Shown here: one piece after another, positions 5,468 to 42,051 of the stretch
Position numbering within the stretch: position 1 is the stretch's first letter
Layout: each line of letters begins with the position of its first letter
Translations under genes and position numbers: made by a program
Source: Candidatus Aenigmatarchaeota archaeon
GTDB lineage: Archaea; Aenigmatarchaeota; Aenigmatarchaeia; QMZP01
Reading direction: 5' to 3'
DNA: 64,000 nucleotides
Assembly: GCA_043824495.1 (NCBI GenBank)
Contig: JBDRSV010000010.1
Location: forward strand, 32,001 to 96,000
Notes under the pieces: model-generated
Seen by the model: only the letters and a program-made list of their open reading frames with translations
Told to the model about the DNA's origin: nothing
The model's database searches: none

Positions 5468-5588
5468 TGCGCCAGCCGGGAGTGTCGGTCTCCACCCGTT
5501 GATATAATATGTATTCATTCGGGAAGAGTCATTCGAACCCGGATCTCCACCGTGGCAGGGTGACGTCCTACCATTAGACTACTAGCGC
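5468..5588 (-). tRNA. tRNA-Gly(GCC) with 50-nt intron at 59/60 (intron 5482-5531); CCA not encoded
   Basis: Acceptor GCGCTAG/CTGGCGC, anticodon arm TCACC-CTGCCAC-GGTGG, T arm CCGGG-TTCGAA|T-CCCGG after removing the intron. BHB with bulges AAT and ACT. Confidence 0.92.
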
Positions 5589-35583: not shown

Positions 35584-36006
35584 ATGTATGAGCTAAAAAG
35601 AGTTGGCGTAGTATCTGTGGGTAAAATATTTGCTTTTATAGGTTTAATTTTGGGTATAATTAACGCCGTACTAATAGGTATAATATTAGTGGCTGCGGGA
35701 GAAGCTCTCGGTAGTCTTAGTGCATTATCATTGTTAACTGGAGGATCTGATCCAATATCATTATTCTTAGCAATGGGAATGGGAGCTGTTATAGTAGTGC
35801 CTATACTGTACGCTATCTCAGGTTTTATTGGAGGGGTAATAGTAGCATTTTTTTACAATCTTGCTGCCGGTAAAATCGGCGGAATAGAAATGGATTTACA
35901 AAACGCAGGATCTAATGTACAAAGAGTTCAAAGAGAAGAAAAGTACCAACAGCCTCCACCTCCAGATAGATATCCACAAGATAAGTACCCAAGAAGATAT
36001 TACTGA
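35584..36006 (+). CDS. DUF3566-like membrane protein
   Basis: LKRVGV.S..K...FYNLAAGKIGGIE. Confidence 0.6.
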   Translation: MYELKRVGVVSVGKIFAFIGLILGIINAVLIGIILVAAGEALGSLSALSLLTGGSDPISLFLAMGMGAVIVVPILYAISGFIGGVIVAFFYNLAAGKIGGIEMDLQNAGSNVQRVQREEKYQQPPPPDRYPQDKYPRRYY

Positions 36007-37741
36007 TATTCATCTAGAAGTTCTCTTTCATCTGGTGTTAATTTACTTTCTATTTTCTTTAGTTTTTCTACATCTTCGTGAGAAAGGAAAACATTGAGAA
36101 CATCGCCTTCTATTATTTCTTTACCTATTGTAACTCCTTGCATAGAAACAGCTACTTTGTCTCCCATTTTTACTTTAGAGATATTATCTCCTCTAAGTTG
36201 AAGTTCTTTTATTTCGCCTACAATATCATTTCCTTTTTTGAGTCTATAGGCTGATTTTAGAGTTCCTTTCAAAACTTCAACACCGAAAATAGCGGGCTTG
36301 CTTGCCCTGAAAACATAACCAGGTAGAACTCTTACTCTTCCAGGCCTTGTTATACTTTCTAATATTCTAGCTTCTTTTCTGGCTCTTTCATCCTTTTTCC
36401 ACTTTTCATAATCTTCTACGAGCCTGTAAATGACATCGGAATGGAATACAGATATATTGTTGTCTTGGGCCATTTTCAAAATATTAGAATCAATTTTGAT
36501 ATTGAAACCAAAAATAACAGGATCTTTCAAAACTCTCATTTCCATTATATCAGATTTTGTGATGTTTCCTACAACAGCTTTTCTTATAGGGACATTTTTA
36601 TCTTTCAGTGTTTTAATCAAAGCCTCTAATCCTCCGAGTGTATCAGTTTTCAGAAGAGTTCCTTCATTCTGTGTTTCAATTTCAACCTCTTCGACTTCTG
36701 CCCTTAGTTCTTCAATAGCTTGGTCTATATCGGATTCGTTTGCAACAGCCCTCAAAGGTGAACCAGGTATAACGTCTTCTAAATCAGAAGCGGCTATTTT
36801 TATTCCAGCAGCAGCAGATACGGTATCGACATTAACAAAATTACTATTTTTTAATTCTTTCAAAATCTCAGGTTCTAATAAAGCCTTGACTTTGGTTTTT
36901 ATTATTTTGTTTCCACCAATAATTATACAGTCTCCTCTTTTGATATCTCCGTCATATAGGATAACATCTATTGTTGTTCCCAAACCACGAAAATTTTTTA
37001 CTTCAAGAACAGTTCCTTTACCTTCTCCATTAGTTAAGATAAGTCCTCTTTTTAGAAATTTCTGGGAAATACCACTTAGTGTCATAAGCAGTTCAGGAAG
37101 TCCTTCTCCGGTGTGAGCGCAAATTGGAACAACAGCTATTTGTTTTGAGAAATCTGATATCCTGTCTATTCTCTCAGCTTCAAATCCCCTAACACCCAAC
37201 TGTCCAATTATTTTATATATTTTTTCTTCTAGAGCATCTTGAACTCTTTCTGATTGACAATTGTAAGTAACAGTAAATGGCTTATCTTTTTGTGGCATCC
37301 AACCAGCAATTCTATCAAGTTTTGTGATGGCTACCATGAAAGGAGTTTTGAATTGTTTTAAGTAATTCAGACTCTCTTCAGTTTGTGGTTGAAATCCTTC
37401 CATCACATCAATAACAAGAATGGCCAAATCAGCAATAGCTCCGCCTCTTTTTCTAAGAGTTGTAAAAGCTTCATGTCCTGGTGTGTCAACAAACAATAAG
37501 CCAGGAATGGTTAACTTAATGTTCATCTTCTCCAACAAATTACCAGCAATTTTTTTAATTAGTTCTGTAGGAACTTTAGTTGCTCCTATTGTTTGTGTGA
37601 TGGCTCCTGCCTCCCCTTTTACTACAGAGGTTCCCCTAATTTTATCCAGTAAACTGGTTTTACCGTGATCTACGTTTTCGGTTGAGATAATACTCAATGT
37701 CCGACTACGACCACGATAGGTGATCTGAGTTTTTCAATCAT
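36000..37741 (-). CDS. infB: Translation initiation factor aIF5B/IF2, interrupted by a 23-nt BHB intron (37676-37698)
   Basis: Exon 1 MIEKLRSPIVVVVGH plus exon 2 gives GHVDHGKT after splicing. DTPGHEAF, TKLD and other motifs are present. Confidence 0.93.
37676..37698 (-). other. Archaeal BHB intron in infB pre-mRNA
   Basis: Helix TCGG/CCGA, bulges ACA and AAA, intron stem TTGAG/CTCAA. The unspliced frame hits TGA. Confidence 0.88.
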
Positions 37742-39084
37742 ACTCGTTTTAGACTTTTATAAAAATCAAGTTCCTCCTTTCCTTTATTTGTAAACGAATA
37801 AATTTTTTGTCTATAGTGGTTTTTATCAATTTTAGCTTTTAAATAGTTCTCTTCTTCGAGTCTCGTTAAGAACATTCTTGTGGTTATTTGGGAAAGCCTT
37901 AAAAATTTTGCAGATCCTAAACTTGTATTAAATCCGTTGTTAACAGAATCTAAATATTTGTAAAGATAAACTTTCTTATTATTAAAAATGTTTCTTACTA
38001 ATTTATTTTTCCTTTTCTGATGAGTTATGCAACCTAATTTAAGTAATTTTATAAAATTACTTCTATTTGTTATTCTCACTGACCAATATCCCTTTTTACC
38101 CGTAATATAGTACATTTTACTTGTTCTTATTCCTATAATTTTGCATATATTCTTGAAGAATAATGCATTCTCTCTACTTTCTGTAGAAAAATTTACTTCT
38201 TTATGAGAAACACCAATATCACCTCTTGACAATCCTCTGAAGGTCTCTATTGAAAATTGTTTTGAACTAAGTGTCAAGTTCATACAATATTCCATAATGT
38301 AATAGAAAACCTCAGCCAACGTAGAGTTATGGATATTAAGAATACACACACCGTGTGATGCAGATACTCTAGAGTTCTTAATTATTTTTATATTGTCTTT
38401 TAATAGTCCAAACTCTGACCAATATTCTTCAAGATTTCGAATCGTATTTTGATCTTTTTCAGGAAATAGTATTTGCACTTTCCATAAATCCTTTTTTATA
38501 CCTAAAATAGATTCAGCGGCTTTGACGAACCAAGCTATCTGAGATCCATCTGCATTAGAAAATGAAAATCTATCTAAATGCTTCCCTTTTTTTCTACTCT
38601 TAAAGCCTTCACAAAAATAAGCTCCAAAGAGCTCCAGTAAGCTATAATTCCCTTTTCTAATAGGTATGAGTTTTGGCAATTCAAATGCATTATTCCCCTT
38701 AGAGTAAATCCATAAAAGAAGTCTATTGTTTTCTAATTCAAATTTATGAAGAGGGTATCCTCTGATTGTTTCTCTTGGTATTATATTGAGTAGATTTGCA
38801 TAACCCTCTTTTTTTACGCTGTTTCTCTCTTTTGGAATACTTATTATATTAAAATAGATATTTTGTGGTGTCTTAATATTATTTGCAAGATGAATAGGCA
38901 CTGTAAATCTCACATCTTTTGTTGTTTTTAGCACAGCGGGAAATGTGGCATCTTTAATTTTTATTAGGGCTGGTTGAACATCATTTAATTTAAACTGTCC
39001 TATTGAAGATTTTTTAGTTACAATAATGTAGCTAGATTGATTATGTCTGCCTTTGCTCTGTTCATAAATTCTTCCCTTTAACAT
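37738..39084 (-). CDS. Free-standing LAGLIDADG-like endonuclease with C-terminal wHTH
   Basis: LLELFGAYFCEG...FSFSNAD and TFRGLSRGDIGV helices; its stop overlaps the infB ATG. Confidence 0.65.
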   Translation of the reverse strand: MLKGRIYEQSKGRHNQSSYIIVTKKSSIGQFKLNDVQPALIKIKDATFPAVLKTTKDVRFTVPIHLANNIKTPQNIYFNIISIPKERNSVKKEGYANLLNIIPRETIRGYPLHKFELENNRLLLWIYSKGNNAFELPKLIPIRKGNYSLLELFGAYFCEGFKSRKKGKHLDRFSFSNADGSQIAWFVKAAESILGIKKDLWKVQILFPEKDQNTIRNLEEYWSEFGLLKDNIKIIKNSRVSASHGVCILNIHNSTLAEVFYYIMEYCMNLTLSSKQFSIETFRGLSRGDIGVSHKEVNFSTESRENALFFKNICKIIGIRTSKMYYITGKKGYWSVRITNRSNFIKLLKLGCITHQKRKNKLVRNIFNNKKVYLYKYLDSVNNGFNTSLGSAKFLRLSQITTRMFLTRLEEENYLKAKIDKNHYRQKIYSFTNKGKEELDFYKSLKRV

Positions 39085-39198
39085 TTCTTCAACCTCACTA
39101 TTTTTATTATATTATCGTTCATTAAAAACATCTTTTCTCCATTTAATTTTCCGTTTGTTTGCATATAAACCAAACGGTAGTGGCATGCCAGTATACCA

Positions 39199-39318
39199 CT
39201 ACATAATATACTCCTTGTAGATCCAAAGTTCTCTGTCATCATCCAGTGGCACTTCGTTATCCACCAGCCACTGGACATATTCTATTTCATTTTCGTCTGC
39301 TTCTTGAATACTCAACAT
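39199..39318 (-). CDS. Small acidic protein (39 aa)
   Basis: SD AAGGAGG. MLSIQEADENEIEYVQWLVDNEVPLDDDRELWIYKEYIM. Confidence 0.5.
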   Translation of the reverse strand: MLSIQEADENEIEYVQWLVDNEVPLDDDRELWIYKEYIM

Positions 39319-39341
39319 ACTTATCCTCCTTGAAATCTTAA

Positions 39342-39554
39342 CGACCTGAAAGACAGACGACTTTATTCGATTGTTGAAAGTCGTCAAGCCTCCTCCGGTC
39401 GCCTTTATTCTAATTCGATACCTTTGTTTGGACAGGGTACGGGTCGAGGAAGCGGTAGCTCCCGTTGACCCGCTTCTAAGAAAGCGTGTCCGCAGGACGA
39501 AAACCATTAAGTGTGAGCTGAAGTAACTGAAGCGAGCCTTAAGGTTTTCAGCTT
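39342..39554 (+). ncRNA. Unidentified structured RNA
   Basis: GC-rich nested stems (CGACC/GGTCG, GACGACTTT/AAAGTCGTC, GGACA/TGTCC, GGGTCGA/TTGACCC, AGCTGAA/TTCAGCT). Most G-U wobbles favour the + strand. Confidence 0.5.
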
Positions 39555-39623
39555 CCGTTTAGTTTACCTATTTACTATCAAGTAGCAACAACCGAAAAGT
39601 ATTTAAATATATCTATCTTAATT

Positions 39624-40478
39624 TTGACTATGGTTATAGCAAATGGTGAGCTGAAGGACAATATAAACATACAACCTACCAGCTCAAGCTATATTGATAT
39701 AGGAACATACAAAAGTTTAGGAAATTCTATTGTTTACTCTACTACACTCACAAGAACAAGAAGAAATTATTACGATTCAAAGAACGAGCTACCAGAAGGA
39801 CATAGAATGTCCACGGCAGTAGAAGAACTTGCAATCCAGCTTGGCCTTGAAAGGGCAGGACAAGACCCAAGAAAAGCTGAAGTGCTCAACGATCTTTTCG
39901 GAAGGAAAAACAACGGATGGTATGCATTCCAATGGACAGAAACAGGATTAAGGGTACCTAAAGGATACGATCCAAACAGGACAGAGACAGACGAACAAGG
40001 AAGAAAGTATTTCCAAAGAATTATTCTGATAGGCGACCAGGAAGTAGGTGAAGTGCTTGTCCCGGAAGGAAGCGGAAGAGCTATTATGGAATGGGACGAA
40101 GTGTTTGGGATACCAAGAGTAACCTCAGACAAGGCCGGAGACATGACGCTCGAAAACCACACAACTCATTTTTACTTTGATGCAAATCCAGGACAAGACG
40201 ATAAAAGCGGCGGATATGATGTATCCGTTGCCCGTGGGAGCGACTGGCATCACGCTGATCACGCTAGGTGCCTGGGCGTCTATGCGGCCTGCGAGCGTTG
40301 GTATGCGTACGTCAATGATGGTGTTCGTCCGGTTCAGGGTTCTCTTCCTGAGATCACACCAGAATTTGTGAGAATTGATCCCGGAATAGTGGAAGAAGCA
40401 AAGGCAAGAACGATAACAATAGACGATGATGCTGCAAACCTGACAGCAAGACAGTTTAAAGAAAAATATAGTGTATAA
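39624..40478 (+). CDS. DGR target protein (probable C-type-lectin-fold variable domain)
   Basis: The VR encodes VARGSDW...NDGVRP near the C-terminus. Confidence 0.85.
   Translation: MTMVIANGELKDNINIQPTSSSYIDIGTYKSLGNSIVYSTTLTRTRRNYYDSKNELPEGHRMSTAVEELAIQLGLERAGQDPRKAEVLNDLFGRKNNGWYAFQWTETGLRVPKGYDPNRTETDEQGRKYFQRIILIGDQEVGEVLVPEGSGRAIMEWDEVFGIPRVTSDKAGDMTLENHTTHFYFDANPGQDDKSGGYDVSVARGSDWHHADHARCLGVYAACERWYAYVNDGVRPVQGSLPEITPEFVRIDPGIVEEAKARTITIDDDAANLTARQFKEKYSV
40225..40329 (+). repeat. DGR variable repeat (VR), 105 nt
   Basis: Colinear with the spliced TR; 13 mismatches, 12 at TR adenines. Hairpin TCAGG/CCTGA downstream at 40334-40351. Confidence 0.93.
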
Positions 40479-40797
40479 ATAATTTCTTTTTGAATTAAAT
40501 ACAATGGATACTTCAACTTTTATTTCCTTTGGAACCCCAGAGAGAGATAATTTCTTCTACTAACCCACATAGCCAGAGCGTTCCTGATTCTTTGTATAAT
40601 CCGTCACTCTTTATAGTCCTGGCCAGAACCGGCTCCGTAACAGAACACACAGCCGGAGAACCCTGAACTATACGCCTGTTCATAGACGAAGCCATATAAA
40701 ATATGTGCTGATGACATGAAATTCAGCAGTGACAGCTAGTAAGCAGAGAAGAAAACTGAAACTGTGGTGAAATCTTGAGTGAACAAGCTACTGAACA

Positions 40798-40943
40798 CCG
40801 TTGCCCGTAGGAGCAACTGGCATCACGATGATCATAGCGAAGCGCTATCATAAACGATAGGTGCCTGAACGTCAATGCGAACTACGAGCGTTGGAATGCG
40901 AAATTGCTGACAAGCGACGCAAACGGCAATGATGGTGTTCGTC
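40798..40943 (+). repeat. DGR template repeat (TR), 146 nt including two BHB inserts (40834-40853, 40903-40923)
   Basis: 146 minus 20 minus 21 equals 105 nt, the VR length. Confidence 0.93.
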
Positions 40944-40969
40944 AATAATCCAGTCTGGCCGGGATCTTT

Positions 40970-42051
40970 ATGAAAACTCATGGCAAACTATACAATAATA
41001 TACACTCAATAGAGAACTCTATCTGGCATATAGGAAGGCCAGAAAAGGCAAAAGGAATCGACATTATGTAAAAGAATTTGAATATGATCTACAGAACAAT
41101 ATACTAAGCTTACAAAAAGAACTAACAGAGCTCACATATGGGCCTAATCCCCTGAAAATCTTTGTGATAAGGGATCCAAAAACCCGTGTAATTTCCGCAT
41201 CTGATTTTAGAGATAGAGTTGTGCATCATGCACTATTCAACATCATTGAGCCGATATTTGAAAAAACATTTATCCATGACTCGTATGCAAGCAGGAAGAA
41301 CAAGGGGACCCATAAAGCTATAGAAAGGTTTGACGAGTTCAAGAGAAAGACAGCAAGAAACGGAAAACTTATAAAAAATGCAAAAACAAACAACATAGTC
41401 ATTGGCTATGTATTAAAAGCAGACATAAAGCACTATTTTGATTCAGTTGATCATGAAGTAATGATTAATATAATTAAAAAGAAAATCAGTGATAAGCACG
41501 TATTATGGTTAGTAAAGAAGATTCTGGACAACCATAACACCAAGATGCCATGCAAAGGAATGCCTATTGGAAACCTCACGAGCCAGACATTTGCAAACGT
41601 ATATTTGAATAGCCTTGATTATTTTGTGAAACAAAAACTAAGGGCAAGATATTACATCAGATATCTTGATGACTTTGTCATATTTGACAGAAGCAAAGAG
41701 AAGCTGGAAAAATATAAAAATCAGATAAGCGAGTTTCTCAAAACAATAAAACTGGAGCTTCATCCCAATAAATCCAAGATAATACCCCTGCATAAGGGCA
41801 TTAATTTTCTCGGCTTCAGAATTTTCTACTATCATAAACTTCTCAAGAAGAGTAATATCAGACTGTTCAGGAAAAGAACAATTGAATTAGAAAAGTCTTA
41901 TATATGTGGGGAAACATCCAAAGACAAGTTATGCGAAAAGATCAACGGCTGGCTGGAATATGCAAGGCATGGAGACACATATAAACTGAGGAAACGAATT
42001 CAAGATGAGATTTCTCATTTCTTAATGATTATAAAGAAAAAACCTCAATAA
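40970..42051 (+). pseudogene. DGR reverse transcriptase with a 1-nt deletion/frameshift near codon 16-17
   Basis: MKTHGKLYNNIHSIEN in one frame, LYLAYRKARKGK... in the -1 frame. GMPIGNLTSQ and RYLDD motifs are intact. Confidence 0.8.

Follow-up and report, generated by a model that had tools for sequence, protein, structure and literature searches.

The window analysed here, 64,000 nucleotides of contig JBDRSV010000010.1 (positions 32,001 to 96,000; G000:C10:32001-96000), belongs to assembly GCA_043824495.1 of a small Candidatus Aenigmatarchaeota archaeon from groundwater, which amounts to 1.01 Mb with a G+C content of 35% and a completeness of 80%. In this window the gene for the essential translation factor aIF5B lies on the minus strand next to a block that carries a diversity-generating retroelement (DGR) on the plus strand. 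Three short inserts interrupt these elements, one of 23 nt in aIF5B and two of 20 and 21 nt in the template repeat (TR) of the DGR. Very probably, the three are separate bulge-helix-bulge (BHB) introns of the tRNA type, each inherited together with its host gene or element.

The aIF5B reading frame starts at 37741 with MIEKLRSPIVVVVG and then meets an in-frame TGA, and the VDHGKT motif resumes 23 nt further on in another frame. Exon 1 (37699-37741, minus strand) encodes MIEKLRSPIVVVVG plus the first base of a histidine codon, in agreement with the N-termini of relatives, and exon 2 (36000-37675, minus strand) contains the Pfam domains GTP_EFTU, IF-2, GTP_EFTU_D2 and GTP_EFTU_D4. The insert (37676-37698, minus strand) is placed between the codons for GH and VDHGKT, and its excision restores the frame of a single-copy gene that is otherwise intact over 556 codons.

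The DGR, recognized by an RT gene together with a pair of repeats that differ at TR adenines, is encoded entirely on the plus strand. Its target gene (39624-40478) specifies a protein of 284 amino acids without a match in Pfam or PHROGs and carries the variable region (VR; 105 nt, 40225-40329) near its 3' end. An RT-16 RNA (Rfam RF03019; 40610-40796) ends with GCUAC just before the TR (40798-40943), which is followed by the reverse transcriptase (RT) gene (40971-42051; RVT_1, E 3e-25). The TR measures 146 nt with the two inserts and 105 nt when they are taken out. Between TR and VR there are 13 mismatches, 12 of them at TR adenines and one a G-to-T change, in addition to the 20- and 21-nt segments that are confined to the TR. 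Because the VR lacks both segments and differs from the TR almost only at adenines, the two inserts are evidently removed at the RNA or cDNA stage.

All three inserts are built to the same layout, in which a 4-nt exon strand is followed by a 3-nt bulge, a 5-bp hairpin, a 4-nt complement of the exon strand and a second 3-nt bulge; this corresponds to a 4-bp central helix with two 3-nt bulges on opposite strands. The aIF5B insert reads A, TTGAG, a 6-nt loop, CTCAA, CCGA and AA, which gives a central helix TCGG/CCGA, bulges ACA and AAA and an inner stem TTGAG/CTCAA. TR insert 1 (40834-40853) reads A, TAGCG, the 3-nt loop AAG, CGCTA, TCAT and AA, with helix ATGA/TCAT, bulges TCA and AAA, inner stem TAGCG/CGCTA and a 6-bp outer helix GGCAUC/GGUGCC. 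TR insert 2 (40903-40923) reads A, TTGCT, the 4-nt loop GACA, AGCGA (with one G-U pair), CGCA and AA, with helix TGCG/CGCA, bulges AAA and AAC and inner stem TTGCT/AGCGA. The original prediction had noted a common design with an AT start, an AA end, a 5-bp stem, differing internal sequences and a distance of less than 3.3 kb, and all of these features are present (the inserts span 3,248 nt). It had also described a 4-nt guide complementary to the exon end. The guide does pair with the exon, but its partner is bases -6 to -3, and two bulge bases separate this target from the exon end. Cuts after the second base of both bulges excise exactly 23, 20 and 21 nt, restore GHVDHGKT in aIF5B and bring the TR into register with the VR. 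In the cbf5 introns, too, the cuts fall between bulge bases 2 and 3 (PMC2738675).

The core of helix, bulges and stem is recovered by minimum-energy folding of the aIF5B insert and of TR insert 2. The predicted fold of TR insert 1 has both the inner stem and the outer helix, and just part of its AU-rich central helix. Fold Z-scores are modest throughout (-1.0 to -2.9). More telling is the coincidence of structure and insert boundary. When the register was defined as four central pairs plus an inner helix of at least 2 bp, random inserts of these lengths had it in 0.5% of trials, and all three inserts have it, which corresponds to a joint chance of ~1e-7. The coincidence of the BHB pattern with the three indels is thus not due to chance. 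By contrast, the bare pattern is uninformative in the genome-wide search that had been proposed as a check. A generic version (helix 4, bulge 3, stem 5, loop 3-8, stem 5, helix 4', bulge 3) gave 311 matches over the two strands of the 1.01-Mb genome as compared with 268-331 in six dinucleotide shuffles, and a version with NNA/AAN bulges matched 17 times as compared with 8-13 times in dinucleotide shuffles. Given these similar counts, the pattern on its own is at or near chance. A genome-wide census of mRNA introns that combined relaxed BHB patterns with the logic of reading frames was dropped because its 4,898 pattern matches and 5,705 frame-joining matches could not be separated from noise.

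The aIF5B insert is present at an orthologous site in relatives. Thirty aIF5B loci were compared (our own and 29 from relatives), to which two metagenome contigs, L152 and L155, were added. GHVDHGKT is uninterrupted in 27 relatives. A member of another genus of the same family (L020) has a 30-nt insert at the same bond and with the same ends, and in its central helix a C-G pair is replaced by T-A. Likewise, inserts of 29 and 30 nt occupy this bond in L152 and L155, and their inner stem shows two changes that are compensatory. In a further relative (L010; G016:C41) aIF5B is interrupted three codons downstream, after GHVDHG, by a different insert of ~34 nt, and the P-loop codons of this gene seem to be a repeated landing place for inserts.

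Inserts in the TR are even more widespread. DGRs were found via their RT in 49 of 301 genomes of the class, and the TR was longer than the VR wherever the TR/VR pair fell within the fetched flanks. In unconstrained alignments, 19 of 27 clean TR-only inserts had four central pairs plus an inner helix, compared with 0.5% in the null, and seven more had three pairs plus an inner helix of 1-13 bp (at least 4 bp in six of them). When alignments were constrained such that gaps were permitted only over segments that fit a BHB, 25 of 26 distinct Aenigmatarchaeota loci became collinear over 49-123 nt after removal of the inserts, and the remaining mismatches were almost exclusively of the A-type. Each collinear locus has one to four TR inserts of 14-58 nt, ~44 in all, with a few of these constrained calls being doubtful (for example, those in L038 and at the end of L035). 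Several sites recur, namely ATGA..TCAT, ACGT..GCGC, TGCG..CGCA and CAGG..CCTG. The site of TR insert 1 is also occupied in L035, L036, L037, L038 and L048, and that of TR insert 2 in L036, L038 and L051. The consensus of these candidate introns consists of a first bulge NNA, a second bulge A A/T N and an inner stem that often begins with T: an A ends bulge 1 in 42 of 45 rows and starts bulge 2 in 41, and T starts the inner stem in 27. Starting with AT and ending with AA thus reflects a consensus of the clade rather than kinship of the three inserts.

A set of 80 named DGR loci retrieved by an RT profile search served as a negative control. No BHB inserts were found in ~45 DGRs of Woese-, Pace-, Nano- and Micrarchaeota or in three bacterium-titled DGRs with clear TR/VR pairs, and in these loci TR and VR match in length or almost do so. 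For a fourth bacterium-titled locus (L144) the alignment was unclear and contained a gap of 126 nt. Among the 80 loci, inserts occur only in three with an Aenigmatarchaeota title (L072, L076 and L081). Judged by these alignments, predicted TR introns characterize the DGRs of the Aenigmatarchaeota as a clade. A literature search yielded no publication that describes BHB introns in the template of a DGR, and a search on RT-16 gave nothing relevant.

Candidate enzymes for splicing are encoded in the clade. Of 41 genomes in which EndA genes were sought, those of 40 relatives and this assembly, 39 have them, and the ~396-aa EndA of the relatives matches the epsilon2 enzyme of ARMAN-2 (4fz2) over its full length with an E value of 7e-100. 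EndA of the epsilon2 and heterotetrameric types cuts non-canonical introns (PMC5829648). In this genome RtcB ligase is present, and ARAGORN detected ten intron-bearing tRNA genes that are spread over other contigs; four of the ten fit the register described above exactly, with bulges such as CTA/AAT and TAA/CAA. Three peripheral observations concern the same machinery. Most genomes of the family encode, besides the ~396-aa epsilon2-type protein, a separate alpha-like EndA of ~176 amino acids (for example, L063:1477-2004 and L070:370-1557), and this pairing is unusual. The RtcB gene (G000:C2:319-3141) is a single open frame of 1002 amino acids in which two pieces matching profile positions 1-52 and 49-426 are ~1.5 kb apart, which suggests an intein-like insertion. 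At positions 5519-5581 of the window (minus strand), an Rfam match to tRNA is partial (model positions 8-63) and scores just at the gathering cutoff; it was missed by ARAGORN and may be an intron-split tRNA gene.

Taken together, we consider the three inserts to be most likely BHB introns that are removed at the RNA level. From the known mechanism of the enzyme family we infer that a splicing endonuclease of broad specificity, probably of the epsilon2 type carried by the relatives, would cut between bulge bases 2 and 3 in the template RNA of the DGR as well as in the aIF5B pre-mRNA, and that RtcB would join the exons. The P-loop would be encoded only by the spliced aIF5B mRNA, and only a spliced template would yield a cDNA that fits the VR in frame. 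The shared design of the inserts would represent the substrate consensus of the enzyme of the clade and not common descent. The proximity of the three would come about because the DGR-bearing block adjoins aIF5B here, whereas aIF5B of relatives borders serS directly. As to the order of events, the aIF5B intron probably predates the present gene arrangement.

Several observations weigh against this explanation. In strict register the outer exon-exon helices of the aIF5B insert and TR insert 2 comprise only 0-2 bp; by virtue of these short helices the two would be relaxed BHBs. The only mismatch between TR and VR that is not at an adenine sits 4 nt past the junction of TR insert 2. Furthermore, EndA itself was not found in this 80%-complete assembly, either with Pfam and NCBIfam hidden Markov models or by tblastn with the proteins of relatives; we take this to be an assembly gap, and it stays a caveat. 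At the RNA level, none of the listed runs contains the locus, and two metatranscriptomes of the same study cover hardly any of the stretch. At the DNA level, a public contig of run X1 spans 37400-41200 with zero differences, and as it is possibly the source of this DNA it does not provide independent support. The DGR may also be inactive now, given that the conserved RT N-terminus MKTHGKLYNNIHSIEN is out of frame with the body of the protein (LYLAYRKARKGKR...) owing to a -1 shift near 41015 (in the interval 40971-41030). The closest RT (L034) has a similar frame break at another position (~1300-1420), and those of other relatives are in frame. Internal stops in RT genes of relatives were considered as further mini-introns and rejected, as they turned out to be natural ends or small unclear insertions. 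Finally, the metagenome contig L152 provides a case in which an intron homologue is found in the VR position, and intron removal is thus not absolute.

This contig (JGI contig Ga0247390_1012939) has the same layout of DGR, an open reading frame (ORF) like the 448-aa ORF that lies between aIF5B and the DGR here (75% identity), and aIF5B. Its two repeat copies are located at 1112-1235 and 1667-1826 on the minus strand. The copy that follows RT-16, in the TR position, is devoid of inserts; of the 25 varying columns in which our TR has A, it retains A in only 13. The copy in the target gene, in the VR position, includes a 21-nt segment homologous to TR intron 1, which is in frame and has A-to-G changes, and mismatches between the two copies run in both directions. 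One reading of this single case is that the VR once received a copy of an unspliced template and that a spliced, mutagenised cDNA subsequently overwrote the TR. It hints at a route by which introns might reach new sites other than by reverse splicing, namely by copying of an unspliced template into a VR. It is tempting to speculate further that Aenigmatarchaeota DGRs depend on tRNA splicing of the host, that TR introns break the homology between cDNA and master TR and so protect the template from being overwritten by its mutagenised copy, and that rare unspliced copying seeds BHB introns into coding genes. L152, where the TR copy has lost both introns and roughly half of its adenines and the VR carries an A-mutated homologue of intron 1, fits this combined reading, which we regard as possible but tentative.

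Other explanations fare less well than that of separate, inherited BHB introns. One is that the TR inserts are never spliced and that the DGR RT skips the hairpins by template jumping, in which case the aIF5B insert would be an unrelated matter. A precedent is the report by Wu et al. (2018; PMC5758913), who put TR/VR length differences in 7% of DGRs down to slippage beside AAC, and the TR inserts described here also adjoin AA-rich template codons. However, microhomology at the junctions does not exceed 1 nt, which argues against polymerase slippage, and ~96% of the clean inserts have boundaries in the EndA register compared with 0.5-3% expected by chance. The same geometry is found in aIF5B, where no RT acts, and similar RTs (44-60% identity) in other archaea and in bacteria operate on TRs without inserts. 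Skipping by the RT is therefore improbable.

About as improbable, and if anything slightly more so, is the view taken in the original prediction that the inserts form one mobile family of minimal introns, generated locally or spread through the island by reverse splicing. The common start, end, stem length and layout of three inserts within 3.3 kb speak in its favour, and the intron-derived 21-nt segment in the VR of L152 indicates that RNA-mediated transfer into a coding gene may occur. Yet loops and stems of the three are unrelated, and they have nothing in common beyond the structural consensus that is shared by the ~44 TR introns of other Aenigmatarchaeota. Local or de novo generation is not supported, as every intron has positional orthologues in other genera: for aIF5B these are found in L020, L152 and L155, and for the TR in many DGRs. 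The clustering, too, loses its meaning, since two of the three inserts share one TR of 146 nt and the DGR is part of a block inserted beside aIF5B. At least 14 relatives have aIF5B and serS side by side in divergent orientation, and here the two are 4.3 kb apart, with the 448-aa ORF, a spacer of 0.5 kb that is conserved, and the DGR in between. The DGR and aIF5B of relatives are located on separate contigs or hundreds of kb from each other, and in L020 and L155 the aIF5B intron is present although a DGR is not. The accompanying proposal that splicing acts as a general post-transcriptional gate found no support either: the genes for EF-2, UppS and RtcB in this genome have no internal stop or frameshift, and out of 17 strict-design sites genome-wide only that in aIF5B restores a long frame.

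Two further alternatives can be dealt with briefly, both being very unlikely. If the locus were decaying, with an aIF5B pseudogene, a dead DGR and junk insertions in the TR, the frame break in the RT and the in-frame TGA introduced by the aIF5B insert would be accounted for, but aIF5B is a single-copy gene with an otherwise intact frame, its insert has been conserved, with compensatory changes, at one and the same codon, and conserved TR inserts are shared by genomes in which VR and TR differ only at adenines. An equally slim chance is left to a ribosome that bypasses the 23 nt of aIF5B by a translational hop, as in phage T4 gene 60, without RNA splicing; a stop codon right after the take-off histidine codon and a hairpin in the gap would suit this model, whereas take-off and landing codons do not match (CAU then GUA) and the insert varies between 23 and 30 nt among orthologues while the BHB register is fixed.

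The remainder of the block next to aIF5B deserves a short description. The 448-aa ORF (37738-39084, minus strand) has a weak LAGLIDADG_3 match and no match in PHROGs, and it is located directly upstream of aIF5B such that its stop codon overlaps the aIF5B start (ATGA). Twenty-two homologues were found. This LAGLIDADG_3-like/winged-helix family is a recurrent neighbour of aIF5B in uncultured archaea, sometimes with Trm1 nearby and regardless of whether an intron is present, and some members are labelled 'predicted transcriptional regulator' by JGI. On the same strand and directly upstream, the ORF accompanies an intron-bearing aIF5B in this genome, L152 and L155. In L153 and L159 a homologue adjoins aIF5B with contiguous GHVDHGKT, and in L157 and L158 it adjoins an aIF5B that is full-length by its gene call (591 and 595 amino acids). 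No homologue was detected in the aIF5B loci of family relatives, including the intron-bearing L020. A role of the ORF as intron-specific homing enzyme is thus not supported. The spacer between the ORF and the DGR target gene (39085-39623) is partly G+C-rich (~39330-39560) and without a match in Rfam; in L152 a stretch of 437 nt shows 74% conservation.

Our analysis suggests that a retroelement can serve as genomic evidence of intron removal in uncultivated organisms, as the TR retains the inserts and the VR, rewritten from RNA, is devoid of them in 25 genomes. If the proposed model is correct, DGR hypermutation would need tRNA-splicing enzymes, which would connect two systems previously without known interaction. 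The idea of a local intron factory would give way to the simpler and testable one of a single enzyme's substrate consensus found in three unrelated, inherited introns.

To our knowledge, protein-spliced archaeal introns in print are confined to tRNA, rRNA and one mRNA (cbf5). In eukaryotes, retrogenes are reverse-transcribed DNA copies that lack the introns of their template and thereby record its splicing. The VR resembles them in being a DNA copy without the introns of the template; here, however, this would be part of a normal, repeated DGR cycle in an archaeon, with splicing by protein enzymes. In the 'collaborative homing' of phages, a free-standing homing endonuclease is located beside an intron, an arrangement that is reminiscent of the LAGLIDADG-like ORF that abuts the intron-bearing aIF5B in three cases. 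Unlike that system, the ORF family also flanks aIF5B genes without the intron, and the intron of L020 lacks such a partner.

The closest counterparts of the aIF5B intron are the BHB introns in cbf5 pre-mRNA of Crenarchaeota, which comprise 16-44 bp, often form a relaxed BHB and are patchily distributed among relatives (Watanabe 2002; Yokobori 2009, PMC2738675). The aIF5B insert would likewise be a short, protein-spliced intron in a coding sequence, with patchy presence and the same predicted cuts. They differ in that the host gene here is aIF5B, with the intron in its P-loop codons, that the lineage (Aenigmatarchaeota) belongs to the DPANN archaea, and that the enzyme expected is of the epsilon2 type and not a heterotetramer. 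The non-canonical tRNA introns processed by broad-specificity EndA (ARMAN-2 epsilon2, PDB 4FZ2; PMC5829648, PMC12397907) share the motif and, in the relatives, the enzyme family, and intron-rich tRNA genes are found in this genome as well; the putative substrates described here are mRNA and the template RNA of a retroelement instead of tRNA or rRNA. Finally, the TR/VR length differences reported by Wu et al. (2018; PMC5758913) resemble ours in the greater length of the TR and in the position of the indels next to AA-rich codons. By contrast, the inserts in Aenigmatarchaeota measure 14-58 nt, form exact BHB folds, recur at fixed sites and occur in one archaeal clade. Their size, fold, fixed position and restriction to a single clade argue for RNA splicing rather than slippage, and a new reading can be offered for published TR/VR indels.

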